From positions 12,961,129 to 13,025,128 of the forward strand of contig CM082576.2 of the NCBI GenBank assembly GCA_040954595.2: 64,000 bases of DNA. The letters are read 5' to 3'. The notes beneath the pieces are model-generated. The model saw nothing but the letters and a program-made list of their open reading frames with translations. It did no database searches and was not told the DNA's origin. Shown here piece by piece: positions 8,961-56,400 of this stretch. Position 1 is the first letter of the stretch. The number at the start of each line of letters is the position of its first letter. The translations under genes and the position numbers were made by a program. Origin of the DNA: Balanoglossus misakiensis. Lineage: Eukaryota > Animalia > Hemichordata.

Positions 8961-9013
<53 letters not shown>

Positions 9014-21800: not shown

Positions 21801-24800
21801 TTTTTGAGGGAATTTACCACTGTTGACATTGTGATGTTGACCCCAGATAGTGCAGGTGACAAAAACGGAAAGGAGTGGGAGACATCTTCCTCTCAGTTGA
21901 GATGGCGGAAAGGAGTATCAGCTGGTGGATGCCGCAATTTCCCTGGTAATTCCTTTTGATTCACAAGTCAAGGCATTCATTCAAATCACTCTTAGGCTAA
22001 CCCTTTCACGCCCACTTCCCTCTAAAGGGGTCAAACTTCACCATGATTTGAACGAAACCATGGTGGTGAAAGGATTAAGAATTCACGATTGGTAAATTCG
22101 AAAGTGTTGTCGGAAGTAAGGATTCTCCATTGTAAGTTTAATAAAAGGTCACTGCTTTGGATTTAGTTGATAATTGTAAAAAAAAAAACTCAGCATTTTT
22201 CACCAATTGTTTTTTTTATGGGTGAACACATCCCAACAAACTGTATTTCAAAATTAAGCATGGTGACCCCAATTTTATTCGACCAATGAATGCAATTTCA
22301 CTTGACTGAGCTATGTATATACATGTATATCCCATGAACCTGCTAACAACAGTATTAAACGCTGTGTAACGCTGCAAACTGATGTCAGCTTAGGCAATCT
22401 CCATCGGTCTAACTTAGCTCAGATATGCCGAAACATATGACAACGAAACATGGCTCGCAAAGAGGTACTTTTTGAAGTTTTAATACTGCTGCCTATAATG
22501 CATGTCTACCCCGCATATAATGCAACATGGAAGCTGCTGGAATATACATTGTAATGGTATTTTTCAAACTATGTCTGCTTTTGTTGTCCCCACTAGCTAC
22601 GTTCCACCTCAATCCACAAGTTAAACTTGTCTTGGAGGATCCAGATGATGATGATGATGACTTATGCACCGTTGTGATTGCCGTCATGCAAAAGGATCGA
22701 CGACGTCAGAAAGAGTTGGGCAAGGGGATGTTGACCATTGGCTTTGCAATTTATAAGGTAAGTGCATGACTGTAGCCAATTGAATGCAATCGTAAGTTTG
22801 CCATCCTTATAGGTAAGTGACTGTATAGGTCAATTGAATGGTAAGTTTGCCAATATTGTTGCCACACTTGAAGATGAATATTCATGTGAAGGCCTTAATG
22901 CAAAGAATTCAAAATAGGAAATCAGCCTTGTGTGTTTGTGTGCTTGTTTCGACACATTCAGTTCACTATTTGTCTTGGGTCAGATTGGCTCACAAGGAGC
23001 CTGAACCCTTTAATCCTGTGTCGAGACAAGCATACATTGTCTGTGTAGTCTCAGTATGTGAGGATGGCCATTGTAATTTTGCCCAAATCACACTTTTCTT
23101 GTTCAGGTTGAAGATGATTCAGACGAGAAACCACCGTTGTCGAAGGATTACTTCCTGTACCATGCTTCCACGGCACGATCCCACACCTTCATCAACGCCC
23201 GTGAAATAAATGGCCGCTTCAAGCTGCCACAGGGCGAGTACGTCGTCGTGCCATCGACCTTTGACCCAAATGAGGAAGGGGACTTTTTAGTGAGGATCTT
23301 CTCGGAGAAACGAAGCACGGCAGAGTGAGTATGGAGTATCCTTTTTTTTCGGAGAGTTTTGGTGTCTTGTTTATCAGTTAGTTTTTGTTTTGTGACTTAA
23401 TTGTTTTTATTGTTTCCCAGATCTGTAAGTGGGTTTGCCCGTTGATCTGTGTAATAAATAAATAAAGTCAGATCCCAGATACTGACTCATCTGTGGAAGT
23501 TTGACTACTGAAAGACCAAGAAAAGAAAAGACGCCACTTTGCAATAGTATAAACAGTGATGTATACTACAGTAGCATGTAAAAATTTCTATTGATATTCA
23601 TTGTCATTGAACCCAGTTCCAGTATATGGCATATGGTGACATTTTTGTCAAGATGCATAAGCACTGACTTACGTTTCCTTCTTTGTGTTCCCAGAGGTGT
23701 TGATGAAACGACCAGAGTAATTGATGTCTCTCCTGAGGTATGCTCAGTGTATTCAATCTATTGAATTCCAATATCTAATGATTATAAATCGAAGCATAAT
23801 TAATGTACATGTCGGCCATCTTGACACTCCTGAGGTCAGAGGTCAGATTGAACTTTTGTCTGAATAGTTGAAGCTGTTTTTCCAAACGTCGAACATAGCA
23901 GCGCAATATTTAGCTGTAGTCTTTAATAGCAACAATTTCGTGGATTAATGATGATTTAGATTATTAATGGTATTATTTGACGAGATATAGAAAGTTCTAG
24001 CATTGTCTTATTCTTCAATACATGAACATTTAACTTCTATGTTGCAGAATGCATTGAGATTTCCTCCGGTCACTCTTTTTAAAATGGTCATTTTTTCCAT
24101 CCCAGTCTGATGTCAGTTTGAATAAACACACAAAACAATTCGTACACAAATGTGGTTTATGTAGTTTCAAAACTATGGTTCGCTTTAACATATTCTTGAA
24201 GAGTTTAAGTTCGTGAAGTGGGTCTGAAGTGAAACGAAACATCTGGGACATTTAGTTTATACACAATGGGTTAAACATCTTTTGCTTTACTTTTTCCTGA
24301 TATAACTACAGGCTCGGGCTCCTACGAGTGCAGAAGAAAAACAACAAGAAGACAGATTCACGTTATTCTTCAACAAAGTGGCCGGAAATGTAAGTACATT
24401 ATGAACACTGTGGTGTGGGGGAATGTTTGTCACACTGAAGGCACTGACGTTGTATGTGTCGTGGAACTATAGACAGCACTGAGACACAAATGGAGCTGAC
24501 TGGGAAATATTTCAGACGCAGTTACCGTCTCTGTGTTTAAACCGTCTGTTACAAGTAATCCTAGGGACGGAATTTGAAACTGGGAATGCCGGTGAATATA
24601 CAGAATTCAAATCTGGATAAATAGCCACACACGCACGTGCATATACAGCCTGTTGTCACGCAGAACAGTAGGAAATTAATCTGGCATGCTGCAGTCGATC
24701 AAGAAATTACTAGTAGTGTTGAAACTGTCAGAACACAAACACTGAAAAAGGCACACTTTTACAGGTAATAGACCAATCTCCCTCATATTTCGCCATCACC

Positions 24801-27800
24801 GTTTCCCGATACATCCATTGGTGGTATATGGTACATGGTAGTTTCCACCACATCGCTCGTCTAACTTCCAAGCAACTTTTCCGTTCGATGCATTCAAATA
24901 GTGGACTGCCTTCGCTTCCTTCCATATTTCATCCGCACCGTATAAGTAGATTCTGGTTATGTCCCTCCTTTTCACCCAAGCTAGTGTCTTTTCCCGATCT
25001 CCGACACATCAATTTTGGTCGCTGCCATCTTGTGTGAGCACTGCCTTATGGGTTTGACTGTTCACTAAACGTCTGTAACCAGCGGCTACAGTTGGAACAT
25101 GCGTGTGAGACGAGCTACGCGCTTTCCAATGATCCCGCTTCCTGCTGACATGGCCATTTCCATGGATACAATATATATGCACAGAACTGTCTATTGGAAA
25201 AGGTCGGCAGCGCACTCACATCGCCCTTGAATCACCGAGGATGTTAAATCGAAATTTGGGTTTACATGGATTCAAGTGTCCCACTGTCAGTCCCCTGTGA
25301 AATCTAACCGTGTGTGTCTGTGTCTTCTCACTCACCTTTGACCTTTGTTTGCAGGATAATGAAGTGGACGCCTGGGAACTGCGCGACGTTCTGACTGCCG
25401 CTCTGAGATCAGGTGAGACGGACCAACGCACACAGTACAACCGTTGACGAAAAGAAGTTTAACCTCATTACAGAAGTTCCACATACAACATTTCAAAAAA
25501 TAACAAATTGACGTTAAGCTTCCTTTATGCCATAAACCAGTGACGAGAAATGGATCCCCCATCAACAATTAAACCTCCTCCCATCAGAATAACTTCTCAT
25601 GGGATTATCACTTTTCCCATACTTCCTGCCTTGTTCATTTCTCACGTGGTTTATCATCCTGTCTGCCACCCATGTCTGATTTAAAGAAAAAAATTACACG
25701 ACAGTGAATTTAGAAATGGAATGCTAGTCCAATTATTGACTGTCATAATTCAACAGACAGTATCAAGAATACGCGCTTTCTGATCACCATCTTCATTTTT
25801 TTCTGTCAACAGATCTCAAAGACGGTCAAGGGTTGAGTGTGGAAGCCTGCAAGAGTATGGTGGCCTTCTACGACGTATCCTTGACTGCTCAATTTACTTC
25901 TTGTCTCCACAGAACGTTGACAGTGTTACCTGGGCAGTTTAAAGTCGCACGCCCTATTTTGTGAGATGTTACTCTTTTGTAAGATTCCAAATGTAGGCAA
26001 TTGGTCTTGAAATGAGGTGTGCATTGCGCGACTCTGGTATTTGTGGAGAGGGTCGCCCATATAAGTTGTTGACTTTTTACCCACAATGTAACTGTTAAGT
26101 GATATGAGTCATTTACATGGAGTAATAGTACCATTTGAGATAGTGAGAATTGCTTATTTACACGAGGCAGGTCTGTCAAAGCAATGTGTTTTTGTTTGGA
26201 AAGCCTGCAAGAAGCTGAAGACTGTATGGATTGCCACTTTTGAAACCTCGCGCCGTGGTAATGACTCTAAGTTGTAGTTGTTGACACCACGCGACACGTC
26301 GCATTTTCTTGCCTGCCAAGTCCATTGTCACATACCCCAGGCTGAGGGAACAGCTCGCGTTGAAATGAGGTTATTGCTTGATTTTTTTCTCTCGGAATTT
26401 CTTAACACAATACCACAGGATGACATGACTGGCAAGCTGGGTGTTCAAGAGTTTATGGACCTGTTTCAAGATGTTAGGTCGTGGAAGGTAAGATATTTGG
26501 AAGATATGTCGAGTATTTTGGTCGCATCAAATTCTGAACACTGAATTTGGATTCAAGACTTGTCCCCTTTTGCTCAATCGTTGTCTTAAAAGATGACAAA
26601 TCAAACTTCAGATTGTCCCTTGTCATTGTGTCTTTGTGTTGATTTTTACCCAACTGTTTGCATTAATTTAATCTGTTGTAGCATTCTTTGTTGTTAGGGT
26701 GTAAGAAAAATCCTGCTGTGTGAGAGGCATTCTTTAAGAGTTGCAAAAATGATGTTGGTCTTATTTGGATGGCCAGAGTTCAGTGAAATCTGTGTGTGGT
26801 TGAGTGCAACAGTGTGTCTGATTTTAATAGTCTCAAGTTTGCGACAGCTGATAAAGTGATCATTAACATTTATCCTGGAATATCAGTTGTCAAATCTCAA
26901 ATGGTGATCAGATACCGTTGAATCATACTATTTGGATTTTTCTGACGCCATTTGTTTCACCAAACCCTTTGAGGTGGCTAGTATCACAACTCATTTTTTT
27001 GGTATGATTTAATGGACAGGGCTGAACTGTTCAAATCTAGTCCATTATCATAACTGATGAGTGCGTATATTTTCGTTTTTGTGTAAAATATGCAGGATGT
27101 GTTCAAGAATTATGATAAGGATGGCTCTGGATCTTTCGACGCGATTGAACTGCGCGATGCTTTGCGTAGTGTTGGTAAGTTTTTATGTCTGTCCGTAAAC
27201 GGACTAGACTTTCCGAACGATTTCTGTGATCACATCAGATTGGTGATTACATATTCCTTACTACCCATCACTTCAATTCAACAAAGTGTGATGGCAGATG
27301 TGACAGGAGGAGACCAGATTTTCTCACCCGGGGCAATTGTTCATCTTCAGATAAAAGGATTTTGTAATTTCTCAAATACTGGCTAATATTCAGTGTGACA
27401 GTCGATCAAATTTACATATGTTTTATATTTTTGTTGTCAAGGAAAACACTGCTAGGTGGTTGGAGAAAGTATCGTGATAGTCATATATAGATGAAGGAAA
27501 AATGTTTCCGCTGACAAATGTAGCTGTTGATGGTGACTGTGACAGCAGTTCCACCTAATGGACTTAAAAGACTGTTGTTTAGAAAGTCAGGACTTGAATT
27601 CACTTTTAAACAAAACCAGTGCTGACGTTAACATGTAATGCCCGGTTTGAGAGACTTAATGCAGGGTATGCACAACTAGACACTACGGTTTATAAATAAG
27701 ATGCAAATGGTTCAAGATCCACTATCCGTAACATTTTATTATTATTAAGTATATTTATTCTCTGTACAGACATCTTCTCAGCACCATCCATGGGACAATG

Positions 27801-30623: not shown

Positions 30624-33600
30624 TCACTTGCCAGCCTTGTCGGTTTTTCTCATCTCCCTAATCTTTGCAACTTGCTTGGGGGATTTCATGTAGTGACGTT
30701 CCTTTGGCAGGTTCTCCTTCTTTTTAAACAGAACTCCAGTTGTGTCCTTCTTGCTGGTTCTCTTGGCTTGTTGTTCGACGCGGTAGTTGACGTCGTCATA
30801 ACGCCGGAACTTGCCGCTCTTCTTAAACGATTCCTTGCTGGGGACACTATCCTTCTTGTAATAATAGCCGGTAGTCATATAAGGATCTGTAATATGATAA
30901 ATAGTATGGGTATAGCTGGAGAAACGATGGGCGGTATAATCTCTACAACGTTGTTTCGCGAGTCACTGGACTCGCTCATCAGGAGACTCGCTCATTTATT
31001 AGTCTCCATCTGGTGTCCTGATGAGCGAATCCAATGACTCATGAAACAACGTTGTAGAGATTATACCGAATCCGTGGCAAAACGCGACCAACAAAGAAAT
31101 GGAAAAACAAGAAAACTGCTATCATATATTGGTGTTCCGGTTTGTGTTTGTCGAAGAAGTGAAAAACACATGCAAGTTCCTTTTTTTCATGTTTGTGCTT
31201 TTCTCTCCTGTATACCTATGACCGAAACCCGGAGCCCTCCTTTCTACAGAGTGGTCTAAGTATGACCATTCATTTTACAATAAAACGGTAAATTGAGTTG
31301 CAGAGATATTTCAGCTTCTTTCTATTTCCGTTCTACTTTTTTGACTACTTTCGCACTGTAAATTCTAATACCAACAGCTGTCACACTCGACAGCGAAAAC
31401 ACTGCAAAGTATTAATCAGTAAATAAAAATAAGCCAAAGAGATTTCTGAAACACAATGTCATCCATACTCACAGGGAGTGCCTGGGTCACCACAATATTC
31501 CTCATCGGAGCCATCATAACAGTTCTGATAGCCATCACATATCATGTAAGATTCCACATCTTCGCAGTACATTTCACCGCTATAATCGTCATAAACAGGG
31601 CATGTGTAGAATGAAGGACCTGTGCGAATAAAACAAAGCAATGGGTTGTATGCGTGGCTGAAATCGCCTAATTTTAATTTGGTCTGACTTCAAACACAGT
31701 CAGGATAAAACAGATACATATTGTGAGAAAGGGAACTTTGTAAAAATAGAATTCTCGTATTCGAACTATCGCTAGCTACCCACATGTTAAAAGTGTCTTT
31801 AACAGCAGATTTGTTCATGAAAAAAGTGCACAGTTCTTGGTCTGAACTTATCTGGTGTTTCGAACAAAATAAATATGTATGATGGTGAAAAGAAAATATG
31901 TGGATCTGTTCCATTTCAAACAAGAGGTCTATGACATTCTTTATATACTGACAGTTTCATAAATGAAATGTGCGATTGTGTAGTTCAATAGTTTTCAGCT
32001 ATATAGAACAAACGAAGTCACACGAAAGCACCGCGAATCTCATTTTGCACAGTATTGCCAGCTCTACATTATGTCAAATAACTCCGAAGTAAATGGGATT
32101 TTAACACAGTCACAGGAACATTCTAGATTTTGTTTTCATTTATGACATGTCTGGTAGAGACGAATGCATATAACATCAGTATTTTGACTCACCACACATG
32201 TACTCCATCTCGTCTTCGCCATAAACACAGTCTGGGTAGCCATCACACTCCCACTCACACGGGATCTCGCCCCATGTCTCGTATTGGTAACCCATTTCAT
32301 CATATTCATTCATATAACATCCAAAGGTGCACGTGTAGCCACCTGAAGGCATCCACAGTGATATAGACAGTGTGATAGCAACCATTCATGTAATGTTTCC
32401 CCCACAAAAGTACTATTACATTTATTTCCCGTGCTGTTTTGCGTGAATATGAAATGTGAGATCATGCGATGAGCGTGCATTAACGGAAATACACTGCAGG
32501 AAGCCAAACTGTATTTAAAAAGCGCCCCAACCGTCATCGGTTATTACAAAATACGGACATAACGAACTATCGATAATATCTCGGTCGCCAGCTTATCGTA
32601 CCGACGAGGTTCTATACTGTATAATAGTAGTTGTTGACAAGGTTCGACAAACAGCAATGGCATCTCACCCAGCCGAACTGTGTTTGTTATTACAAAAGAA
32701 AGATTGCCGGAATCACCAATGAACAATCAAATTGTATTCTATGCGACTAGCACCGATTCATGCAGCTAGGAGATCAGCAAGCAATGTTACCACTGCCCAA
32801 CTGTGGTATGAAATGCGTTTTTTTATATTAAATGATTCTACAATCTGGGGACAATTCTACTTACATCCATCTTCGTCTTCACCACCGGGGCAGTCCGGCC
32901 AACCATCACAGAAAAAGTCGCAGGGAACACTGTCCATGTTGTAAGGGTCACACGGGCAATCATTATCTTGAAATAACAACCGTACAACACAATTATGAAA
33001 GATGACATTTTTCTGTTTTCGTGGCATTTACACTTTTTTGACACAACAACTATAAGATTAAATCATCCCGTGTTAAGGTAAGTGTCATTGAAGTACAGGA
33101 GGAGTGAATCACTGAAATATTTCCACTTAAACCGGGAATTGTCATAAAATATTATCATTCTTACTTATACCACAGTTGTATTCATCACTGCCATCAACAC
33201 AGTCCATGAAGCCATCACACACTTGGTACCAGTAAATTGGCGAGGTTTGAGTATAGTCCATGTCATAGTAAGTGACGCAGTCATAGGCGTAATCACCTGA
33301 TGAATAAAGAAGATATTTTCAACGGTGTTTTACCTTCCCTGATAAAATATTGACAATTTACCTTGAGTTTGTCTAATACACTCTGCATACATACTTTGAC
33401 GTCACGGCAACTATAACAGTCCCACCACCGCCATTATCCTCACCGAACATTATCATTCACAACGAAAGTTACTCACCATCATCATGGCAGCCATCATGAT
33501 GCACTGAACAATCTGAAAAATGAATAACAATTTTATATGAAATCGAGCATGTCTTTCTACTTCTACGACACTTATTGTGTCTTTTTGCTGCTTTATTTGC

Positions 33601-38304: not shown

Positions 38305-40518
38305 TCACTTGCCAGCCTTGTTTGTTTTTCTCATCTCTCTTATCTTTGCAACTTGCTTGGGGGATTTCATGTAGTGACGTTCCTTTGGCAGGTTCTCCTT
38401 CTTTTTAAACAGAACTCCAGTTGTGTCCTTCTTGCTGGTTCTCTTGGCCTGTTGCTCGATGCGGTAGTTGACGTCGTCATAACGCCGAAACTTGCCGCTC
38501 TTCTTAAACGATACCTTGCTGGACACAGTGTCCCTCTTGTTATAACGGTTGGTAGTCTTTTCGGGATCTGTACGGCCGGTAGTCTTTTCGGGATCTGTAC
38601 GGCCGGTAGTCTTTTCGGGATCTGTACTGCCGGTAGTCACATCGGGATCTGTACGGCCGGTATCGGAATCTGTAAAACAACGTACATCATATATATATAT
38701 ATACATTTTCTGTACGAGTTAGGTCATAAAAATGCGCTTGACCAGACAAAGTATTCCATACTCACAGAAAGAGCGAGGTTCTTCACAAAATTCTTCATCG
38801 GAGCCATCCAAACAGTTCGGAAAGCCATCACACATCGTGTCAAAGGGCAATTCTTCGTAGTGCATTTCACCGGTAAAATCGTCATAAGCCACTAGGCACT
38901 TGTAGAATTGGGAACCTGAGCGAATAAAACAAAGCAATGGGTTGTATGAATGGCTAGGATCGCCTAATTTTAAGTTGGTCTTCAAACACAATCAGGATAA
39001 GACTTGATACATATTGTGAGAAAAGGAACTGAGTATAGAATTCTCGTATTCGAACTATCGCTAGCAACCCACATTGTTAAAAGTGAATTTGATTGAAGGA
39101 CGGCTTTATTCGGGGGTAAAAGTGCTCCAGTCCCACCACCACCATCACCCTGACCGAACGTATTCGAACACAACGAAAGTCGCTCACCATCAAGGCTGCC
39201 ATCTTGAGGCAATGCACCATCTGAAAAAAAAATGAATAACAATTTTATAAGCAATCGAGCATTTCTATCTACTTTCACGACACATATTGTGTCTTTTAGC
39301 TGATACATGGATGCTGCCTGTTAATTAGGTAGCAGAATGTGCGCAAGGGTGCAAATATAGCAGTTCCCCAACATGAAAAGGATACGCCGTCCATTACAAA
39401 GAGTACGGAACGTCACGAAATGCCTTGCATAATACCTGTATCTAATAAGACAGTCAATTTTCTGATGAATATTTTGACAAGCTCTGCGTGTGAAATATTG
39501 CCACATTTCACGGATGCGTAGGTGCAATTGATCAGAGACAAAATGATACTCGCCATTAGATATTGCTTCCATTTCCGCCCTGGCTCCACAAGCTACATCG
39601 TCTTCATCGTTGAAGTAGCGACCACAGTCAGTGACAGCGTTACATACGTGTTCTACCGGCACGCACAAGCCGCCGCACACGTATCCCAGGGGCGGATTAA
39701 AAGACTCGACGACGCAAACTGGTGAACAAATCAAAGAGACAAGCAAACAAATCAGACAGAAAGATGGTATCATGAAGTTACATGTACTTTCAAAGTTGAA
39801 TTTGATAAGATTTTGAAACTCTGAAAGGAGACAACGAAGACTTTTGTCATTGTGGAGGGTCTGGTGGAGTCCTAGTCTCGGTTACCCAGAGCCCTCTGCT
39901 TCTTCCGTTAGGCACTCCAGGAAGAAGCAGAGGGCTCTGGGTAACCGAGACTAGTGGAGTCCGGAAAATGTTCTACTGCACATGTCAAGTGAGCGTGTAC
40001 TAAAACATACTCGGTGATATCGGATATCGCACGTGTTGGTAATGTCTTCAGAAAACACCTGTCAAGCACAATTCACTTACGTTCAGCACCAAAATGCATT
40101 CCCAGGTCGATGATTATTTGAGAGAGGATGTCATCTCCTAAATAATAACCGGGATCTGACTGCTCACCACCACCGACTTTGAGTTTTTTCTTTGCCTCGG
40201 CTTTGGACGGGATATCGAAGCGTCTTCGCTGCAGCTGCCAGAGTAAAATGTAAAACATTATTGCATATGTACTGCCGATTATCTTGTTGTTGTCGGCAAA
40301 ATAAAATTTGTATTTTTCCTGGTGGTGGTATGTAAATGAGATAAAATAGTCCCTGGTGAAAGTGTGTTAAAATAGCAAGATACGAAACAATTGCAACTTC
40401 CATGGTTTGAAAACCCCAAAATTACAAGGAAATCGTTTAATACCTTGTTCGGGTTGTTGGCGCCGACAGTGATGGCGATGAGGCACGTACAAGCAACGAA
40501 AATCGTGAAAGCATGCAT
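38305..40518 (-). CDS. Secreted LDLa-repeat protein with basic tail, copy B (2 LDLa-like modules plus Thr/Gly-rich repeats)
   Basis: Exons 40518-40444, 40228-40081, 39718-39554 (GC donor), 39220-39188, 38915-38766, 38669-38305; frame consistent; paralogous to copy A. Confidence 0.8.
38551..38671 (-). repeat. 27-bp coding tandem repeat (TTGRTDPEK)
   Basis: About 4 units of ggtagtcttttcgggatctgtacggcc in the last exon of copy B. Confidence 0.92.
39873..39953. mobile_element. 81-bp fold-back MITE with 9-bp target-site duplication
   Basis: Arms tagtctcggttacccagagccctctgcttcttcc and its reverse complement; gtggagtcc duplicated at 39864-39872 and 39954-39962; related termini near 17010 and 37645-37664. 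Confidence 0.88.
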
Positions 40519-42873
40519 GACTCTTGATGACCCGAAGGTACTGATATCAGAAGTCTGTTTCACAAGTGTGGCAAATGTTGTCAATTTCCGCGATATATAT
40601 TGGTGAGGGTACAATGTGGCCTTTTGATTCTGGAAAGTGGCCACAAATATTTCTGAATGTTGACTGTTCAAACACCGACAGACTTACAGTATTTCCACGA
40701 TAGTAAAATGAACAAATCATTCAACTATTTAAACATACGAATATTTATTTTTCTCAAAAAATCACGCGCTCGGGTCAAAATGTAAACAGGACAAGTTAGA
40801 GCTTGATTTCAAGTTCAAATTGAAAGAAAATTCGACATACAAATGTGACCTTCCATTTCAAAGTAGTAAAATTTCCACTGAGATATCGTCACTAATAAGC
40901 TAGATGATAAACTGGTCTTATTAGAAGCCAGTAATACGTACCAGGTATAGGACTTGCAAATGTGTCTATTCTTTTTTTTCTTCCCAATTTCAAAACGACG
41001 TCCTAGTACATTATCAATTTCTCTAATAAATATCTTACAGTAAAGCTCATGAAAATTTTCTACTAATGAAATTGTACAAAATTTCAATTCATTCCTCCGA
41101 GCAATATGCGCAGGTCAGAACGCACGTAAAATAAATCTTTCACGTCACGCGTTGTATTTACTTTTTTTAGTCGAGAGAGCAATTGATGATGTACTAGAAC
41201 TTCGCTTTGAAATTGAAAAAAAAAGAATAATCACGTTTGAAATTCCAATGAATTGAGTTGCAAATGTCAAAGCAAATTGACGAGACTGGCATGTGGTGTT
41301 TACAAAGATTTTGGTACATGTTCAAACTTATCACTTTCGAAACTCTATTTCAACGTGCATTAAATAGCAATGCAGCTTTACATGTGTGGTTTTTTTTTTC
41401 ATTTCAAGGATACAATTTACAATGATTCTGAGGCAGAGCCTTCGGGACAAAGCACAAGCATTTTGCGACTTTCCATTTCCATCGAATTCACACTTGCAAG
41501 GTTTATTGTTTTGTATTTTGGAATCAGTGGGCTGGTAAATAGGAAATGAGTTGCGGACATGTTTCTACAAGTACCACCGTCAAAATGACCTATACATTCA
41601 CAGCAGGACCAGAAACACTGTCAAAGTCTGCCTGTCGACAATGTCAAGTGTATTTATCCAGACGGAGCACTCTTAATTGAATCCGGGCATGTTTAAGTCC
41701 TGGAAGGGCAAAATTCCGGCGGGGAAAACCCCTCCCGGCCACCCCATCAATGCGCACAGCCTATGACATAAATTCAGGTTGTGTGACACGGAATATAAAA
41801 CAGGATGCATGGGTAATTGCAAGAATGGTTGCGCTTTATGTGATGCTCTTGAACTTGTACGTCAACGACACAAGGTGTGAAAAGGGGGCGCGAAAGCAAA
41901 TTCCGCATAATTTTAGAGGTGTAGTGGAGACGCCGGGTAAACATTCAACATGTCCCAATCTACCCGACTCCCTAATAAGGAAATTAAATTGCCCGGCCTT
42001 ATAAATTTACCAACATTAGAGTGTTTGGATTAAAACACACAGTTGGAAGTTTCACGTAAGCGTGCCTGAGGAAGTCAAAGGCACGGAAGCCATTACAAAC
42101 ACAGGGGAATACAAGCGGGCTTTGGTAACAACAGTTACAATTTGTGAAACGTCCTTTCTTGAATTATCTTGTTGTCTGCGCAATTAAAATTTGTTGTATC
42201 AAACGTAGTGACTAAAACGGCGACCGTTGATGAAATTACATGTAACATCGCACAGAGAAGTGGATCATTCAGGTCTATATCATAAATTGTCACTGAACTG
42301 GGGGGGGGGAACTATTTCTCCCGTCTAGGAAACACTCAACACTAATCGTAGCAATGGTTGTATTGTGCAAAAACATGCCACGTTCATTTTTTCTCCCCGT
42401 TCGTTTCCGGATTTCCTCTGAAGCCCAGCGACTTATCACATTTAACCTGTGACTCGACTATCATCTGCAAATATTTTCTGACGTGCGAGACATGTATAGT
42501 GGACGTGTCCCAAATAAGAGATATTTCTGTAAATATTATTCTGGTCAGTTCCATCAATAGTTCTCAGATTTCATGTTTTCGTCCAGACAGGGGACAATGG
42601 CCGCGATATTGATCTGGCTTGTCGTTCACCTTTACGAAATGTGGAAATGTTTGTTAATCGCTATTTTTAAAGCAGGCTATGCAAAGTATTGACACAAATC
42701 GCCTGTTTCTGAACACTTTCACTTTTTATCTGATTTTGCTTTGACGTGAACGTTGATCCTTGCAAACAAACAGCGACTTTGTTTATCAGCTGTTTAGAAG
42801 ACAGATGCTTAACCTTGCTTCTTTGTTGAAATGTTTCGTACACGTGCTCGTGGCGTGTTTCCTCTTCAAATCC

Positions 42874-42965
42874 GGGATACCCCGAAAACGCATATCAAAT
42901 TTCAGGATATCCTGTTGTCGTCTGACTGCTTTTTCGCGCGAATTCGGGTTCATGGCTGTATATAA
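42874..42965 (+). promoter_or_regulatory. Candidate promoter of the DUF6973-type gene (kappaB-like site and TATA box)
   Basis: GGGATACCCC at 42874-42883 fits GGGRNNYYCC on both strands; TATATAA at 42959-42965, about 95 nt before the ATG. Confidence 0.45.
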
Positions 42966-43057: not shown

Positions 43058-44980
43058 ATGTTTCTTCGACTGCTTGTAGTCTGCTACCTTGCAAGTGTGA
43101 TCTGCGGCATGACCATCCCGCCAACACCAAAAGACGCCGAGGAAACAACACCGAAAGAGAAGAAGGAAGAATTTGAAAAAGAGTTCATCAGGCTGCTTGT
43201 GAAGTACGAGGAAATACTGCCAGAGATACAGGGAGAATTCTTCACGAAAGAGGTAAAGTTAAAAATTCGCAATACACATCTTATTAAGGTATAGATAACT
43301 ACCCTGATGCAGTGCGTAGTTATCACATCCCGTTGTCTTACATGTAGAAATTTTGAGAAAACGGTCGTGTTACAATATTGGCATTTTTTTACAAAGGGAT
43401 CCAAATAAGCAGTATTATTAAATGATATAAAGAAAACAATTTGTCACCGTGCAAGGAGGTCTGCGTGCCCCGACGTTACGCAGCTAGCCTCCTGTGGTGG
43501 AGGCAGTGTAACGCCGGGAGCACGCAGACCTGCACGCAGGGCTAGGCTTTAGTGGTGTTTTGCTCCAGGAATAACAACCCCTGGGAATATCTCCGATTCC
43601 TCTGCATACATTTGCACTGACAATTAGAGATTTCTTATACTTTAAGCACTTTTGGTGCAACTTTTTCTCTGTGTGATTGGTATAGGACCAGTGAATGGCG
43701 ATGCAAAATAATCAAACCTTTGTCACAGTTACCACGCACAGTGAAAAATTAATGAGGTGATATAGGGGATTGCCCTGAAAAGTTGTCGAAGTCATAAGAT
43801 CTACCACTTTTTTGCATTATTTTCGTGATTTTACTTTCCAACTTTGATTGACCCATCTAAATAAGCTTACTGATAGGTACGCATGGACATCTTATCCACG
43901 CCCGATTGTGGCTGTATGTTGCAATTTTAACAAGTGATATATTAAATGAGTGCCGCACCCGTTTAATCAACATCCATACAAAAAGTACACAACTATCGTG
44001 GTATACATCGCCAAGAGATGACAATCTGATGCAAATACGAGAAATATGGTTTAATGGGGATTTTATCGTGGAAAAACATGTGCAATTTGGCAACTCATGG
44101 GGCTTTAAGTTTTGGGATTCCTGTCGGAATTTGGTATACTTTTGCCAAATTTCCATCTCTGCAATGAGCGGTTGTGTAAAACATGATCCTCCCCGGATTC
44201 CTTCATCCAACAAAACCCCCAACTGTAAGATCTTCGAAATTTTACTTGCAGGGTGCTAACATCATCGACTATGATAGCTACAGTGACTCGTACTCATTCG
44301 ACGGAGACGTAACTTCCGAGGAAAAACCTGAGGCAGAGAGCGAAGAAAGCGACTCCAAATCGGGCTCCAGATCTGCAGAACAAACGGCAAATTCCCGACG
44401 TAGGCGATGCGTGTCGTGCGGTAGGTACACATTTACTAACACAAAACATGATAACAGTGGCGTTTTCTGTCGAGGAAGTTGCGAAATGTGATCAAATTTT
44501 AATTATTATCAGTTTGTGTGTGATTCAAACCATTGACAAACTTCCATGGATGTTATTTACATGTTTGTTTAAACTTGGATATGACGAGCACAATTAAATT
44601 ATTTCTTTTCAACGTTAATAGTTAAAAGAGTTCCTATAATAATAATATGCATGTAATCAGAAATGCATCGATTTATGTGTTACTCCCTTTTTGTTTCGAT
44701 TTCAGGTTGCAGTAAACTCCCGGCGGGTCTATCTGAGGATGCAGCTTACAGTTGGCTTGATTTTAGCAATAATGGTATTCTTGAGGTCTGGCTGGCTTTA
44801 TTCAATCCGTGGAAAGCTATGAAGATAAAAGAATTTGCTGACGATAGCAAGGCAGATGCAGCGAGGCTCTACCCAAGCAGTAAGTTATCCAGATCAGACG
44901 ACACATTCGGATGAAACTTCTGCGCAATCTCAGAACTCATCCGGTATAGACTGACGCCTTGCAGAAGCGTTAGGCTAAAC

Positions 44981-45061
<81 letters not shown>

Positions 45062-45082
45062 CTTTCTCTCTCTCTCTCTCTC

Positions 45083-45127
<45 letters not shown>

Positions 45128-45175
45128 TTCTCTCTCTCTCTCTCTCTCTCTCCCCTTTCTCTCTCTCTCTCTCCC

Positions 45176-45250
<75 letters not shown>

Positions 45251-45735
45251 CCTTCCTCTGTTTCAAAGTAGGTCTTTTGTTTCAGAGTGAATACAAACGC
45301 AGAAAGTTAATAGGCATTGCTGACAGTGGTAAATGATATACATTTTACTTGTGGTTAACAAGGGTTTAACAGTTCTCACTATGACGTAAAGCGTAACATA
45401 CTTGCAATTTTCTTGTAGGTTTACACAATGGCGAGGGTGACGCCTTTCGACACGCGCTGTGGATGTATCGTGTGACGAAAAAGTATGGATCCTCCGTCGC
45501 CAAGGACTTCGGCGATGCCCACGAGAGGTCAAGTGTCAACGCCCTCAACGAAAGACTCATGGACCTGTATAATAATGAGGTCGGCCGCTGCCTGGGCTCA
45601 AATCCAGCCAATCATGGCCGAGATGACATCGACGTCATCAGAGATGCCTTGAACAGTGGGAAGCTGCAGATACGTCTGGATAGTAGTTACCATGGCAATC
45701 CAGCTAGTAGTGGATCTTACTATGGCAGAAAGTGA
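43058..45735 (+). CDS. Secreted prepro-protein (284 aa) with DUF6973/Min-Wnt-like (lipocone/SAA-related) mature domain
   Basis: Exons 43058-43252, 44252-44420, 44706-44879 and 45419-45735 join in frame (855 nt). Signal peptide MFLRLLVVCYLASVICG, acidic pro-region, RRRR site, then NGEGDAFRHALW...AKDFGDAHE...MDLYNNEVGR. Family assignment is from motif recall. Confidence 0.88.
43450..43544. repeat. Imperfect hairpin / fold-back MITE remnant in intron 1 of the DUF6973-type gene
   Basis: Arms aggtctgcgtgccccgacgttac and gtaacgccgggagcacgcagacct; ends ...gcagggcta. Confidence 0.6.
44984..45247. repeat. Long (CT)n microsatellite
   Basis: About 260-nt CT array with ccccttt interruptions. Confidence 0.95.
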
Positions 45736-47556
45736 AAAAAAGAATCGAACATTACAATTTATTATTACAATCAGCCGAATTGATTTTTGGCCTGCTATAA
45801 TAGAAAATCTAGCGACGTCATAGAGAACGATAGTCTCAAGAACTGAGAATTAGCAGTATTTTAGCAAAATAAAAATTCCCAACTCATCAATATCGTTGAG
45901 CTCATGTCTTCTTTTTGGCATTGTCTAGCATGGAACTTCTCCTTAGTCGACAAATGACACTATTTTGACTTTTGATTTTGACATGATGAATAACCTGTCA
46001 TCTTTACGGGGTTGAATAAAAATGTCTTGATGGAAAAATGTTACGTATACGGTGTATCGGTACATGGAACGACTATTCTTTTTGTGTTGTGATTGGTCAG
46101 ACAGAGGTCGACGTCACGACTCGGTTTTGGACATCCGGGAACAGAGCAGCCACGAATCAGCGAATGTAGAGATCAAGTCAACCCAACATCTTGTTTTAAT
46201 CAGATTGGTTACGACACGTACTTGTTTTAGTTCAAATTTCACATAGCAACCCGGTCGTCCTTAATATGAGGTTTTGCTTACTTTCAGAAACTGAAAAAAA
46301 ACTGTCGATTTCCAGTCAGTTCACTGGCGGAGTGACTGTACACCTTACAGGCACACGAAAATATTAATAATTTTTATTTCATTTGTTGTCTTCCCACGAA
46401 GGTCAGCAAAGTAGTTATTAAGAACACTTCAAAAGAAATGACCTTTTGGTGCTAACGAAACTGAACACCCAAACTGGTCACGCGAACAATGTTGCAAGTA
46501 GGTATTAGTGGAGAGAGACTGTACACCTACGCGCATGATGTGAAAACAGCAATTTCGTGGTAGAAAAGATACTAGGTGTCAAACAAGTTATTAAACTTGC
46601 CGTAGCCCTCAGAATCGTACAATTGTTAATCGACACGTACTTGTCCTTGCTCTATATTTCTCCTATTTGTATTTAAAAAAACACAATTACTTCCCTTTTG
46701 TGAGCTATCTTACTCGCCTTTTATGAAAAACACCACCTTTCTCTTTCTCTGCCTCTCTCTATGTCTCTCTCTCTCCCTCCTCTCTGCCTCTCCCCCTCCC
46801 TCTCTCTGCCTATCTCTCTCCCCCTCTCTATATACCCCCTCCCCCTCCCTTTCTCTCCCTCTCCCTCCCTTTTGGAATTGGAACTACTTTGTGATTATAA
46901 GATATGAGACTGCATTGACATTTTTTGCAAATTACTTGTTTTTCAGTAAAATATTAAATTTAAGAATTAAAAAAAAATAATCTAGCAGAATAGTGAGATG
47001 ATACCACTCGTCCTCCAAAAGCTGTCAAGTAGGAAAGGTGTGGTGTTTAATGACTTTTGCAGCATCTTCTGCCCGTGACAGAGAACCCATTTCCGCTAAA
47101 ATCAACACATTTGACGTGTTCTTATCCTTGAAGTCTTAGATAGCGTTTGCTGCCAGACGCCGCGGCATCGGTCCATGCAGGCATTGAAAACTGCACGCAA
47201 TCAAAGTACCGTTCGTGCGTGACATCTGTTGGCCAAAGTGTTTTAACAACTCTTACTGTAGCAAGCATGTTGACCCACTTCTTTTTTGCTTCAGAGAGTA
47301 TCTATACTTGTTCATCTATTTGAAACCGCAGGGGGCGAGTAAACCCCAGCAGTAACACTTTGTGGAGATTCTAAAAGCAGTAAGACTATCGATTGATTGA
47401 TCTATCTTTCTGTCCAATTGATAGATCGAATGTTTGATAGCTAGATAGCTCGATGCCGATCACCTGTAGATCCACCATCTATCGAATATCGATCGATCGA
47501 TCGATCGAAATGGATTGAGGGATCAGTCGATGTATTTATCGATAAATCGATCACCC

Positions 47557-47639
<83 letters not shown>

Positions 47640-47750
47640 GGTCGGTCGGTGTGTCGGTCTGTCTGTCTATCGATACATAGATCTATCTATCAAAATATTG
47701 ATCGATCAATGGATGGATGGATGGATGGATGGATGGATGGATGGATGGAT
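47557..47750. repeat. (ATCT)n and (ATGG)n microsatellites
   Basis: Directly visible arrays at about 47557-47638 and 47709-47750. Confidence 0.92.
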
Positions 47751-48130: not shown

Positions 48131-48476
48131 GTGAGTAAACTGTCTGTAACTTTTCGCCTACAGCGTAGCTGATGAACAGAAATCAGATACCATCAGTATA
48201 TTTTTTTTATGCTTCCATTTGTTTTCATTTTTATCGCGGAAATCCTTTCTGTTTAGTCTTTTGATCACCCTGCCATTTCTCAGATATCAATAAAAATACT
48301 ATTTTATATCTATTTACTCATGTAAATTTATAAAGCGCATATAGTTTAGGGATGTTTTTAATATGTATAAACTTACAAAATATAACCTCAAGACAATGTA
48401 CAGAGAATACAGTTTGTAAATGTAAATGTTATAATGTTGTCATTTTCTGGATTTTATTCAGAATGCTTAATATATA

Positions 48477-51400
48477 ATGAAGTGGACATATTCTAAGCTT
48501 TTCGTCCAACTCATCGTGTGGAGGTGGTTTAGCACCACCGTCATCAGCGGTGCGTCTGACTTCGACGATGTCTGCATCGATGGCGAGACTTCGCGCAGAC
48601 TGGACTCTTGCTTCAGCCTCACGTCGGGTGAACCGGTGTGTGACCGCGTGTCGGTCGTCGGCGACCCGGGCACCCAGCTGAGCTGCAACTGTGACGCCAA
48701 GTGCCTGCGCTACGGCGATTGCTGTTTCGACTACCTGGAGGCGTGCGGCAACCATTCTGCCGCGGAAGAATACGTGGCTCTTGCCGCGGAGGAGAAGACA
48801 GACGCGTACGCGTGTGTCAAAATTTCTGATGTATCCGAGGAGAGGTTGTGGATGGTCAACAAGTGTCCAAAAGGCTGGCCAAACAGTACCATCAGCGCCA
48901 AATGTGAAACAGAGGTTCCGTTAGGTACGATATTGAAGTTATTGATAAAAAACTATGCAACGACTGCTGAAAATAGCCAGGGACTTAATAAATTCTTCAC
49001 TTCAGTATGACAATTTGAAATTCATTACTAAGCAGCTTGACTGCGAGAATGTATATTGCACGGGTTGCGGGAAAATGTTGTCGCAAGATAGGACGGGGGA
49101 TATAACTTCAAATATAGGATTCAGTTCACTTCTAGGGCCATGCACGTCACCGCACATTCACATTTCAGTTAATTTTCAGTGAAAGGCACGTATATTCAGT
49201 GTAATCTTAAGGTACTATGCTTTTCGGCGATATGTGACAGTTCTCCAAACCTGTCAATCCTTTGGCTATATTAGGCCTAAAGGTGTTCTAAAAATCCAAG
49301 TTTTCTCCGTAAAGTTTACAGAGAAACTAGCGGCATAGACCTAACGAAGAAATTGGCGTACATTTTGCATATCAAATTGGAGACAATTTGACAGAATTTT
49401 GTTCCGTCATTCCAAATTTTGCATGATGACCCCATTTTTTTATTCTCAAATTTAAGAGAAAATAATCTAAAAGTTACTTTGAGCAACACTTAAGAGAAAT
49501 CTAAGACTAATTTTCGAGGCGCACGCTACCATAAAGTTGCATGATCCGGACCGTTATTACACCCTGAATATCGGAGAGTATTGAAGTCTTTTCAAAGTGT
49601 GCAGTAAATATTGTACAAAACGATCTCAAATCCAAGAAAATAATGCATTTTTATCGAACAATCTTCGGGCAAACGTCGTGTTTCCTTCGAGTTTCTTCAA
49701 TAAATTTCGGTTTCCGGGGAGACTATGACGTCACAAGTAGACTACTTAAGCTACGGAAGCATTGAGCATTGTTGAGTGCGTAACTAATGCATGTGGTATA
49801 GGTTTAATATCAGAGTAAAAAAAATAAAAGATGGTGAAATGTTGCGTATGAGAAAGAATACAAAATGTTTTCAACGGGATTCGAACTCAGCGCCAAATCA
49901 CGTGGTAAGGTCGAAATCTAACATTTTGACAAGGAAGAAATAATGGCGCGACTTAACTTATATTTTGTGTTTGGTTTATTCGTTGTAGGTTTATCGCTGG
50001 AGAGTTTGCCTGTGACTGTGCCATTGAAAGGGGAAGTGTACCGTAACATTTACTGCGCGGTGTGCAATGGAGTCAACGATAGCGATGTCGTCATGTGGCA
50101 GGCCAGTGTTAATGTCACTGTATCAGCCGCATTCAATACAATACACGGAATCTTCGCCAACAGTACAGATCCACTGCCCGAGATCATGAACGTTTCCCGG
50201 GTGTATTTGGAGTCCAATGGTTCGCAGCGCGCGATGGTGGCTATTAGCGTGAAGGACAGAACTGGGGTGAGATTGCGAAGGTGTGTAGGTTATATCGAGA
50301 CGTGCGACGCCGATGTCGCATTGAACATATCTGAAGATCACCCAAATGACACCCGTCTTTGCCAGTCGCGTTTCTCTATCATCTCGAAACGTCTAGACTG
50401 GTATGGCGAGTATGCATACTTTAAAAACGTTCATTGTTTCCGATGCAGTGTAGCCGATCCTCCAGAATCTTCACATTACTTATTTTGTGGCTACATACCC
50501 GAGAGACAATTCGAGAGACATGTTTATGGAATGAAACTGCTTTTTGACATAACAACAAACGGTAAAGTCATCTTGGAACCTGTCCAATCATTCGAATATC
50601 GAACATTATCGCTCGATTTCGAATGCTCTCGACAGGAGGTGTTTGACCCAAGTACACTGGAGTGTATACGTGTAGATTGGACATATGAAAATGGCAGAGT
50701 CGCTCCGTCACCTGTTCAGATGCAAAACATCAGTGACCAGTCAAACATGACAATGTCAAATTTAACCATAGACAGTACTACTGTCTATGATTTAACCAAC
50801 CACACTTTGTACAACTCAGACATAGTATTGACGGAACTACACAAACAATGTGAGCACCCAGCAGAAATATTAATACTAAATGAATCAAATTTCGAAATTG
50901 ACCAAAATACTCTAATTGCCCGAGTTGGCGGTATTTCATTCAAGACTACAATTTTCGAGACGTTTGCTAACAACACCGTCGCTTTCGCTTGCGTGCAAAT
51001 TTACTCGAATTCCTCTATTGTTGGTATGTATGGTGCATGGCTTACTGTTGGTTGTACTTCGTTATCGGTCATTTGTCTGATGATATATTTGATACTACGC
51101 GGCAGGCGTAAACTTCTTCAGACATATCCTGGAAAACTCTTGCTGAATCTGCTAATCGCCGTACTGTGTGCTCAGATTATGTTAGTGTCGAGTATGGGTT
51201 TGAATGAACTACCAAAGTTGTGTTTCTCGGTGGCCGTGGTTTTGCACTATTTCTGGTTAGCCTATTTCTTCTCAATGGCGGTTATCAGCTTCGATGTCTG
51301 CCGGGCATTTCGGTCTGTTCACAATGCTCTTCATGTGAGTCACGGCAGGGGACGGTTCGCCTGTTACTGTCTTTTCGCTTGGTTGCTACCAGCTGTGGTA

Positions 51401-51835
51401 GTGTCCACTGCCGCCATTTTGGATTCACATTTTGTGGTAGGCTTTGAAATCGGCTATGGCAGAGATGGCGTCTGCTGGATCACCGATGCCTTCGCCCTGC
51501 TGTTGCTGTTCGTTGTGCCCGTTGCCGTTGTACTCGCCTTCAATGCAGTTTGCTTCGCGCTAACTCTGAGATACATTACGATTTCCTCGACAAGCCGTGG
51601 TTCTGGCAATGTTTGGCGAGAACATCTTGCCACCGCTATCAAAATGTTTCTAATTATGGGGTTGACTTGGTGTCTTGCATTGGCTGAGGTTTTCATTGAG
51701 AACGGCATTCTGAGCATTTTTGTCAGCAGTGTAAATTCTCTCCAAGGATTTTTTTTTGTCTTAGTCGTGACCGCGAAGGAGGCTACCTCCAAAAATGGAA
51801 AAATCCCCAAAATGTCTACAAATAGTCCTAATTGA
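48477..51835 (+). CDS. Somatomedin-B-domain family-B (adhesion/Methuselah-like) GPCR, 764 aa
   Basis: Exons 48477-48924 and 49989-51835 (phase 1). Signal-like N-terminus, SMB motif CNCDAKCLRYGDCCFDYLEAC, Cys motifs YRNIYCAVCN and FKNVHCFRC, and seven hydrophobic helices with family-B signatures (LHYFWLAYF, AWLLPAVVV, CWI, GLTW, NSLQGFF). Confidence 0.9.
49208..49534. mobile_element. Degenerate TTAA-type non-autonomous DNA element in the GPCR intron
   Basis: ttaaggtactatgc... and ...cgaggcgcacgctaccataa termini; related terminal fragment at about 47872-47945. Confidence 0.5.
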
Positions 51836-53479: not shown

Positions 53480-56400
53480 CTACTGGCCCTGGAAAGAGTT
53501 GACCTCTGGGGTGTTCTGCTTGAACCTGCCAGTCTTGACTCCTTCTGCCCACGCAGTTTTACATTCATCGATATCTTCATCTTCGCCACCGTCACAGTCG
53601 CCGTGACCATCGCACATCAGACGAAGTGAAATACAGCGGCCGTTATGACACTGGTATTCCCTGACTTCGCATCCACATCCCATCTCATCTTCTCCATCAG
53701 GGCAGTCTCTGGTGTCGTCGCATTGTTTAGATTCGGGAATACAGGATTGATCTTCACACATAAATTCCCACTCTTCGCAGAAACAGGTGTGCACGGATTC
53801 ATCCTCCCCATTATAGCAATCGTTGTACCCGTCGCACAGAACACTCATGTCTACGCATCCGCCACTCGGACAGCGGAACTGATCTTCCCGACAAGAACAA
53901 TTGTGTTCATCTTCTCCTTCTGCGCAGTCGTAGACAGCATTACATCGCCATTCAGCATATATACACATACCGTCATTGCATTCAAAACCGTCGCAAACTA
54001 CGTCTGCGCTATTCGCCTGGCAGTTGTCTTCCGCTTCATCTGCCCCGTCGTCGCAATCGGAGACGCCATCGCACAGCCACGCAAATGTTATACAGGCACC
54101 GTCAGAGCATTGGAAATCACAACAGTCCATCTCATCTGAGCCATCCAAGCAGTCGGCGATTCCGTCACACTTTGAAAACTCATCAAAACACTGGTTACCA
54201 TCTTTGCAGGGGAGCTGCAGATAACCACAAGAATGGCCATGGGGAGGCTCACAGTTACTTTCATCATCCTTATCAATACAGTCAGCAACTGCATCACACA
54301 ATTTACTGATTGCAATGCACTTGCCATCTTGACATGTGTACTCTGAGTTAGCGTCACATCCGTATTCTTTGTCGTCGTCACTTCCTCCTCCTTTTACTCC
54401 GTCTTCTTCTTTGTCGTCGCCTCCTCCTCCTTTTACTCCGTCTTCTTCTTTGCCGTCGCCTCCTCCTCCTTTTACTCCGTCTTCTTCTTTGTCGTCGCCT
54501 CCTCCTCCTTTTACTCCGTCCTCTTCTTTGCCGTTACCTCCTCCTCCTTTTACTCCGTCTTCTTCTTTGCCATCGCCTCCTCCTCCTTTTACTCCGTCTT
54601 CTTCTTTGCCGTCGCCTCCTCCTCCTTTTACTCCGTCTTCTTCTTTGTCGTCGCCTCCTCCTCCTTCTCCTTCCTCGTCTTCTTCTTCTTCTTCTTGAAG
54701 ACAGAGTTGTTCATCGATCCCATCATCACAGTCTCTTACACCATTACAGACAAGATGTTCAGGAACACAACTGCCATCGCCACAGGTAATGTACTGCGGT
54801 CTACACGTTACAACTGGACAGTTTTGTTCGTCATCTCCACTGACACAGTCAACAGCCCCATCGCAGACCTTGACACCACCTATGCAGGCGCCATCTGAAC
54901 AGGTATACTGTTCTGAGGTGCACGGGCAGCCATTTTCATCTTCTCCGCCGGAACAGTCGGGTCGTGAATCGCACACGGCATTGATAGAAATACATTCGCC
55001 AGATGTGCAGGTGAATTCACTTTCATCACACTCAAACGGCGGACAATTCATCTCGTCATCCTCGCCACTGCAGTCGGCTACGCCATTGCAGAGCAGGTTG
55101 GAAGTGATACACGTGCCATCGGAACAAAGGAAATCACACGGACAATTGGGGTCTTTGTTTTCACCCTGGACACAGTGCACCAGTTTATCACTCGCATGCT
55201 CAGCAACGATACACGGGATAGGGCCGGGGGTTGTGCTTTGGCACTCAGATTCGTCTTCTTGTCCAGGGCAGTCGAAGTTGCCATCGCACACCTTATCATA
55301 GCTGATGCAACCACCACTGGGACAGGCATACTCATCATCACCACATCCACAGTCAGTGCTGCCGCAGTCGTGCTCATCTTCTCCCGATTCGCAGTCAGAA
55401 ACGCCGTCACAGACAAACGACTTCGATATGCAATCGCCGTTTGCGCAGCTGTAGCTGTCGTCTGGCGAACAAAGAGCACAGTTGCACTCATCACTACCGT
55501 CAAAGCAGTCCGGGTGACCATCACACACGTAACAGGGCGCAATACAGCTGCCGTCCGGACAGTAGTAGTCGTTTTCACCACAAAAGCCACGGCAGCCCGT
55601 CTCGTCCTCCGCCCCCTCGCAATCCACCCGTCCGTCACAGATACTGTGCGTTGGGATGCAACCTCCTGAGGCGCATGCGTACTGATAACTCCCACAACCC
55701 TGAAGATGTTGCTGGTCGTGCACATGCACATGTGCTTCCGAACAGAACAGTTCGTCTTCACCATAGTCACAGTCTTCCCATCCATCACACACGAGCTGGT
55801 AAGGAATGGGAGTCCAATCCATACAATAGAAGTCAACAGCACTGCTCCACTCATCTGAAATTTATAAATTTTGCAATGAAATTGACCAATTAATAATTGG
55901 TACGGTTAGTCTGAGAAATCGATTAAAATGTCACAATACAGTCGAATATTCATTTTTGATACCAACAATGAATGTTTTGGGACATTTTACAAAACATTCA
56001 TTTTTACATAAAAGCGAAACGCTGCTTTCCAAGTCGTAGTGGCCAATACTTATCACTGTACCTTTGACTGTAAAAAAAAACACTTCAACTTACCTTCACC
56101 TTGTCTTTTGAGGTCCACGCTCCGATCAAACCCCCTCTGTTTATTCTGTAAACCCTGTGAAACGAGATACATATTCATCACACATTGTATACCTGGAAGC
56201 TTGACTTTTGAAAGCTGAAGGTAAATGAAAGTTTGTTTTGGCAGATAGTCCGGTTGGATATTAATATATCGACGGTAGAATGTGGTATTTTGTACAAAAC
56301 GAGAATGTTTCCCCTACAGTCTGAGCCTGATGTCGCAAAATGCGAACCACAAGCCATCGTCGGGAGGGGGCTAACAGAAAACAAAACCACGCAGTCTCCA

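Follow-up and report, generated by a model that had tools for sequence, protein, structure and literature searches.

The Min-Wnt family was defined by Burroughs, Nicastro and Aravind (2025) within the SAW clade of the lipocone superfamily, and the same paper reports transfer of active secreted Min-Wnts to fungi, rotifers and Saccoglossus, where they expanded in a lineage-specific manner and are predicted to act against bacteria (PMC12419801). The sole experimentally studied member found is BteO, a T6SS effector of Bacteroides fragilis GA3 (structure PDB 9uu0), which is toxic from the periplasm only and produces elongation, blebbing, lysis and altered muropeptides (PMC12541434). Each of the substitutions R143A, H144A, H167A, E168A, D187A and D191A abolishes its toxicity, the OmpA binding seen in pull-down and co-IP likewise depends on these six residues, and overexpression of OmpA6/8/9 suppresses the toxic effect (PMC12541434). 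BteO was labelled non-enzymatic by its authors because no glycosidase or amidase activity was detected and OmpA-C was bound through the six residues, these two activities being the only ones excluded in the available sections of that paper (PMC12541434). Its main text contains no occurrence of 'lipid II', 'undecaprenyl' or 'Wnt', and a literature search found none that connects BteO to Wnt, lipocones or DUF6973. Among other lipocones, TelC is an enzyme that cleaves lipid II, and in VanZ and YfiM the set H, E, D-x3-D forms the active site of Ca2+-dependent lipid-linked oligosaccharide pyrophosphatases (bioRxiv 10.64898/2026.09.16.752124). The Nematostella protein Dae4 is lethal to Gram-positive bacteria (PMC8713801).

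The gene analyzed here lies at positions 43058-45735 of a 64-kb window (the whole stretch of Balanoglossus misakiensis DNA that was analyzed). The gene is real, the preliminary description interpreted it correctly, and it belongs to a kind of family known since 2025. The transfer into animals, including a hemichordate, which that description had mentioned, corresponds to the published transfer of Min-Wnts to Saccoglossus (PMC12419801).

Gene model and genomic surroundings

Four exons encoding 284 amino acids had been proposed for this locus. Splicing of the window sequence at GT..AG introns (999, 285 and 539 nt) gave 855 nt, that is, 284 aa plus a TGA stop:

43058..43252, + strand: exon 1, aa 1-65; signal peptide, then the first part of the propeptide (splicing, homologue alignment)
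44252..44420, + strand: exon 2, aa 66-121; acidic propeptide, RRRR site and first residues of the mature domain
44706..44879, + strand: exon 3, aa 122-179; helices at the N-terminal end of the lipocone domain
45419..45735, + strand: exon 4, aa 180-284; DUF6973/Min-Wnt core helices H2-H5, C-terminal tail and stop TGA
42959..42964, + strand: putative TATA-like box, some 100 nt ahead of the ATG (motif scan, general consensus)
45868..45873, + strand: putative polyadenylation signal AATAAA (motif scan)

Residues 1-284 of the spliced product aligned with residues 1-295 of the Ptychodera flava RefSeq protein XP_070560500 (63% identity, E 3e-117), and since this alignment crosses all three junctions, the splicing is beyond chance and the junctions are supported; we infer the splice sites from homology. 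Saccoglossus LOC100370001 was 53% identical to the product. The three motifs attributed earlier to the last exon, NGEGDAFRHALW, AKDFGDAHE and MDLYNNEVGR, are all encoded by exon 4, and intron 3, which follows exon 3, splits the bacterial-type domain. A helix-like motif of exon 1 (F..EF..LL..YE.ILPEI) was also present in the orthologues. A single copy of the gene was detected within the 64-kb window by tblastn with nine homologues.

Several repeats accompany the gene. Short MITE-like inverted repeats with 25-nt arms were observed at 43447-43541 (intron 1) and 41000-41200, intron 3 houses a long (CT)n microsatellite (44984-45247), and a (CTAT)n tract lies downstream at about 47558-47640. Sequences resembling kappaB sites occurred at chance level over the window (4 matches vs. 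4.2 expected); two of the three distinct sites, 42874-42883 and 41723-41732, fall within 1.4 kb upstream of the gene, a clustering noticed post hoc, and one of these lies about 85 nt before the TATA-like box.

Among the 168 of 177 window ORFs that were scanned (the nine excluded ones overlap the Min-Wnt gene), those around the gene corresponded to exons of calpain, EF-hand, LDLa, somatomedin B and 7tm_2 proteins, and GC content ranged from about 0.36 to 0.50 over the whole window, with no island. The neighbours include a tandem pair of calpain genes on the + strand (305-9622 and 15848-27383) with Peptidase_C2, Calpain_III and EF-hand exons. At 48471-51832 (+) a somatomedin B exon precedes a 637-aa frame containing a secretin-family 7TM domain, and the two probably belong to an adhesion-type GPCR; 53483-55861 (-) holds an unusually intronless single open frame of 793 aa with 16 LDL-receptor class A repeats; weaker LDLa matches were located on the - strand at 31462-31689 and 38722-38991.

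The domain is chiefly bacterial (82-90% Bacteria in the top Atlas clusters), which would suit an origin of the gene by bacterial contamination or as a chance frame. The probability of such an origin is nevertheless practically nil and it was discarded, considering the three spliceosomal introns, one of them inside the domain, the full-length P. flava orthologue, the animal neighbours and the location of homologues on contigs of 19-47 Mb. Introns, neighbours and orthologue thus mark the locus as genuine animal DNA, in agreement with what had been argued in the preliminary description.

Protein layout, family and active site

The layout of the spliced product is that of a prepro protein, and on this basis it is predicted to be secreted and processed. 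The following features were recognized:

43058..43108, + strand: predicted signal peptide, aa 1-17 (first 15 residues with a hydropathy of 2.31; presumed cleavage point)
44396..44407, + strand: RRRR, aa 114-117, predicted furin-type convertase site (R-x-x-R comparison, general consensus)
45589..45591, + strand: C237, predicted disulfide partner of the C118-C123 region (residue comparison)
45724..45732, + strand: C-terminal Gly-Arg-Lys, possible amidation signal (comparison across hemichordates, general rule)

Cleavage of the signal peptide was placed by the (-3,-1) rule, and RRRR was read as a convertase site from the furin consensus. The propeptide (aa 18-117) has a net charge of -11 and a pI of 4.5 and ends in RRRR; an R-x-x-R immediately ahead of the domain was found in 6 of the 8 secreted-type hemichordate proteins. 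The mature domain (aa 118-284) is near neutral (net -1, pI 6.6) and its region contains four Cys. C237, which occurred in all nine secreted-type hemichordate rows and was outside the five commonest residues at this position among 236 non-animal rows, is predicted to form a disulfide with an N-terminal Cys of the C118-C123 region. A C-terminal Gly followed by basic residues is the general signal for amidation, and Gly plus basic residues form the C-terminus of 4 of the 8 secreted-type hemichordate proteins.

The window protein belongs to Min-Wnt (DUF6973), in the SAW clade of the lipocone superfamily. As had been proposed from its motifs, exon 4 alone matched the Pfam DUF6973 profile (PF22322) with E 6.5e-21 and 74.6 bits, against a curated cutoff of 27. 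The comparison with Wnt suggested in the same place gave a different outcome, exon 4 falling below the cutoff of the Pfam Wnt profile (E 0.023, 14.7 bits against 20.3). Exons 1-3 had no match in the Pfam profile scan, and exon 4 had none in PHROG. Moreover, NNEVGR fits the sNxxGR motif of the SAW clade, and Min-Wnt.tsv, the table of Burroughs 2025, lists the Saccoglossus homologue APU50778; P0002, from the same cluster as APU50778, shares 53% identity with the spliced protein (E 2e-88). The features of metazoan Wnts are lacking: the Pfam Wnt score is below cutoff, the mature region has four Cys, and there is no H2-H3 insert. The source of the GenBank name 'hemiSP-like' was found neither in the main text and two supplements of PMC4729200 nor in a literature search.

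An AF2 model was obtained for the mature domain of the P. flava orthologue (pLDDT 90.8), which is about 76% identical to the window protein in the domain and to which all fold results refer. It comprises helices at 39-59, 68-85, 87-100, 105-123 and 132-141, arranged as a four-helix cone plus a fifth helix. Among 48,161 chains searched, the best match was BteO (Z 12.9, rmsd 3.8, 130 aligned), followed by WNT8A (Z 9.3, rmsd 3.4, 119 aligned) and a next row at Z 5.7; PSS1 was at background level (Z 4.6, 63 aligned). Such Z values alone are inconclusive for helical proteins, and the sequence profile independently recovered BteO (E 7.9e-9) and Wnt-5a (E 0.002). The model fits the lipocone fold; Foldseek, which had been suggested as a check, returned no PDB match at E <= 0.001, its best being 9uu0 at E 0.085. 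SAA was absent among the 50 VIA rows listed in the fold comparison of the P. flava model, and its cluster had an Atlas feature score of 0.89, taken as a lead only. The two best fold matches and the presence of APU50778 in the Min-Wnt table bear out the lipocone grouping claimed at the outset.

Alignment with the PDB sequence of BteO, counted by hand with eight residues from the paper fitting one offset, placed BteO R143/H144/H167/E168/D187/D191 at R190, H191, H214, E215, E224 and D228 of the window protein, five of them identical and one changed from Asp to Glu:

45448..45453, + strand: R190-H191, equivalent to BteO R143/H144; lipocone H2 His (PDB alignment, mapping)
45520..45525, + strand: H214-E215, equivalent to BteO H167/E168; lipocone H3 Glu (PDB alignment, mapping)
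45550..45564, + strand: E224-x3-D228, equivalent to BteO D187/D191; spacing as in VanZ D143/D147 and YfiM D87/D91 (alignment, mapping)

The His, Glu and Asp residues that had been said to be all present are indeed intact, and they make up the set of active-form lipocones: H191 (H2), E215 (H3), D228 (H4) and a further acidic residue, E224. H191, E215 and D228 occurred in 236 of 236 non-animal rows, which were picked by a profile that contains these motifs. All six site positions were intact in 133 of the 236 non-animal and 8 of the 15 animal rows; the site was degraded in the other seven animal rows, a Tae4 fusion among them, which indicates that Min-Wnts are kept in animals without catalysis as well. 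DAL68673.1, another row of Min-Wnt.tsv, matched BteO over the displayed region.

Relatives in animals and bacteria

Homologues were recovered, among the matches listed, from P. flava, S. kowalevskii, Glandiceps talaboti and the chiton Liolophura sinensis; beyond hemichordates and this one chiton, no other animal was identified in the best 150 of 6,868 profile matches, most of them nameless, 20 of which were looked up. In a 50-row mixture-model tree the 13 hemichordate proteins formed one clade (99/92) among 36 non-animal rows, 19 of them from named bacterial genome loci, which is consistent with the nesting among bacteria proposed earlier; no sister lineage or bacterial donor was resolved in the trees. 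The careful trees comprised 50 of the 251 rows, omitting P0159 (a near-copy of P0002) and most unnamed rows; the rotifer and fungal Min-Wnts, none of which was recognized among the matches, are likewise outside the trees. The mixture tree had a midpoint root only, with a bootstrap short of full convergence. Among the 25 best genome loci, 22 were alphaproteobacterial, and the hemichordate gene likely came from an alphaproteobacterial toxin gene. Five signal-less, site-degraded hemichordate paralogues from three genera (P0039, P0042, P0090, P0097 and P0099) formed a subclade (100/98).

The chiton protein XP_064598310 (P0252), with a signal peptide, Cys-rich and Pro/Thr-rich regions, an intact DUF6973 site and no C237, bears on the age of the transfer. 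In the IQ-TREE runs it branched next to the hemichordate clade, as its sister (94/90 in the mixture tree, 89/90 with LG+G4, SH-aLRT 88 and 97 in quick trees), a grouping that suggests that the transfer may predate hemichordates. A single older transfer into a bilaterian ancestor (or from animal to animal) followed by wide loss, instead of a transfer into the enteropneust stem, is accordingly a possibility to be taken seriously, although not the favoured one: AU tests did not reject a position of the chiton among non-animal rows (p 0.35 and 0.15), so that one old transfer and two separate transfers are both compatible with the data, and FastTree paired the chiton with an unnamed JGI protein. 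In addition, both careful trees give it a long, unstarred branch, its domain architecture differs, C237 is missing, and no further animal was identified in the profile matches covered above. A literature search found no paper on Liolophura and transfer.

Two animal paralogues are fused to other domains. The P. flava model XP_070570416 (P0254, RefSeq) is predicted to be secreted and combines a site-degraded DUF6973 domain with a Tae4 amidase domain (E 8e-20), in which the Cys and His motifs look intact; two bacterial toxin domains are thus found in one animal gene model. The Glandiceps paralogue XP_077987702 keeps its site intact and is joined to a lipase domain of pancreatic type (E 3e-72) in a RefSeq model that may be merged.

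In the bacterial relatives, the toxin-like ORF was located at 21 of 22 loci examined (of 80), and in 16 of these 21 a membrane-anchored co-directional gene lay directly downstream. These downstream ORFs (L001 4402-4914, L002 4534-5052, L005 3957-4490 and 13 other loci), which accompany alphaproteobacterial DUF6973 genes, are 116-177 aa long, start with a predicted membrane helix, have a Cys and a Tyr in common and match no Pfam family; their products are candidate immunity proteins. PG_binding_1 (peptidoglycan-binding) domains were present in 4 of 14 scanned relatives, RHS in one, and phage-family matches in 4 of 10 upstream ORFs tested. At locus L010 a gene for a phage internal virion protein is followed by an 823-aa frame (1928-4399) that ends in a DUF6973 domain; its product may be a toxin delivered by virions.

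Possible functions and comparison with known systems

The reading we prefer, at a probability of about 0.45, is a furin-activated secreted pyrophosphatase that would act on lipid II-type carriers and kill bacteria. The protein would be secreted via its signal peptide and cut free of the acidic propeptide by furin; the mature enzyme, presumably metal-dependent, would then cleave the pyrophosphate of lipid II-type cell-wall carriers, leading to bacterial death. The propeptide would take the place of the bacterial immunity protein and shield dolichol-pyrophosphate sugars of the host in the ER. The reading is favoured by the intact six-residue site mapped onto BteO, by fold and family, by the catalysis of VanZ/YfiM pyrophosphatases and TelC, by the periplasmic toxicity of BteO, and by the Tae4 fusion, the membrane-anchored downstream genes and the peptidoglycan-binding domains of relatives. 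Against it stand the degraded site of 7 of the 15 animal rows and a mature domain that is neutral, unlike cationic antimicrobials, and has no evident way past the outer membrane; a literature search for animal Min-Wnts yielded neither activity nor expression data. BteO itself is distant (24% identity) and was published as non-enzymatic, with OmpA bound through the same six residues (PMC12541434). That evidence (pull-down, co-IP, suppression by OmpA6/8/9 and the loss of binding in six mutants) would suit an antibacterial protein whose pocket binds an OmpA-C-like envelope protein or sequesters an uncut lipid carrier, as would the persistence of site-degraded animal paralogues, one of them fused to an amidase as if it were a targeting module. 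We consider such a non-enzymatic action unlikely, since the main text of the BteO paper is silent on lipid II, undecaprenyl and Wnt, its enzymatic exclusions extend to glycosidases and amidases alone, and H191, E215 and D228 in every non-animal row, even if gathered with a motif-bearing profile, suit catalysis better than one protein partner.

An active enzyme could also serve digestion or host lipid metabolism instead of immunity, by degrading bacteria eaten as food in the gut or by altering head groups of the host's phospholipids or polyprenols. Acorn worms eat microbe-rich material (PMC4729200), the Glandiceps paralogue carries a lipase domain, and the five signal-less paralogues form an old clade; this is rather unlikely, however, as the nearest bacterial relatives resemble toxin-immunity pairs, a Tae4 fusion exists and the lipase fusion is perhaps a merged gene model. 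The prepro layout, convertase site, possible C-terminal amidation and Wnt-like fold would moreover be expected of a secreted signal with hormone-like processing, co-opted in parallel with the origin of Wnt. Yet the active-site set lost by metazoan Wnts is fully retained here, and the H2-H3 insert that carries the lipidated serine of Wnt is absent, making such a role quite improbable.

The preferred enzymatic reading can be extended into a broader proposal, which is speculative and on balance doubtful. Min-Wnt toxins including BteO would be metal-dependent lipid II/undecaprenyl pyrophosphatases, from which acorn worms (perhaps also chitons, through one old transfer) would have made a furin-activated innate-immune enzyme, its propeptide replacing the immunity protein and guarding dolichol glycans in the ER; inactive copies would later have been fused, as targeting modules, to cell-wall and lipid enzymes. 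If true, the gene would represent the Wnt ancestor in a living animal and in catalytically intact form, the descent of Wnt from a bacterial lipid-attacking toxin itself resting on prediction. The enzymatic reading, if right, might introduce a new class among the antibacterial enzymes of animals.

TelC, VanZ/Llp1, YfiM and PTDSS1/2 share the pocket pattern H, E, D/E-x3-D with the window protein; they represent other lipocone clades, with VanZ, YfiM and PTDSS being membrane proteins, and activity has been shown for them, whereas that of Min-Wnts is predicted. Metazoan Wnt has a helical core in common with it (WNT8A Z 9.3; Wnt-5a E 0.002), as SAA may have too, but both are far more distant than bacterial Min-Wnts, and the window protein has no Wnt hairpins or lipidation loop and keeps its site intact. 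Dae genes (e.g. nvDae4, PMC8713801) are likewise interbacterial toxins turned into secreted animal genes, and the P. flava paralogue contains Tae4; the Tae4 amidase domain is, however, unrelated to the domain of the window gene, and the likeness is one of analogy only.

With BteO, the window protein shares the fold (Z 12.9), the family (E 7.9e-9) and the six positions essential for toxicity. BteO differs in its N-terminal TM helix, T6SS injection and immunity protein BtiO (PMC12541434), while the window protein has a signal peptide and propeptide, no immunity gene and 24% identity. The window gene, an intact animal Min-Wnt, thereby ties the family to a member with mutagenesis and a structure.

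The window protein agrees with the Min-Wnt family as described (PMC12419801) in its core of five helices, in the H2 His, H3 Glu and H4 Asp, and in the NxxGR motif. Transfer and a predicted role in antibacterial immunity are already in print there for Saccoglossus (PMC12419801). Only Saccoglossus, rotifers and fungi are named in the available text, with no match for Ptychodera, and the readable supplements gave none for Saccoglossus, Ptychodera, Glandiceps, Adineta or Rotaria (PMC12419801). The present analysis adds members from Ptychodera, Glandiceps and a chiton, and the Tae4 and lipase fusions. Together with the link to BteO and the prepro architecture, this broader occurrence among enteropneusts and in a chiton opens the enzyme hypothesis for Min-Wnts to direct tests.
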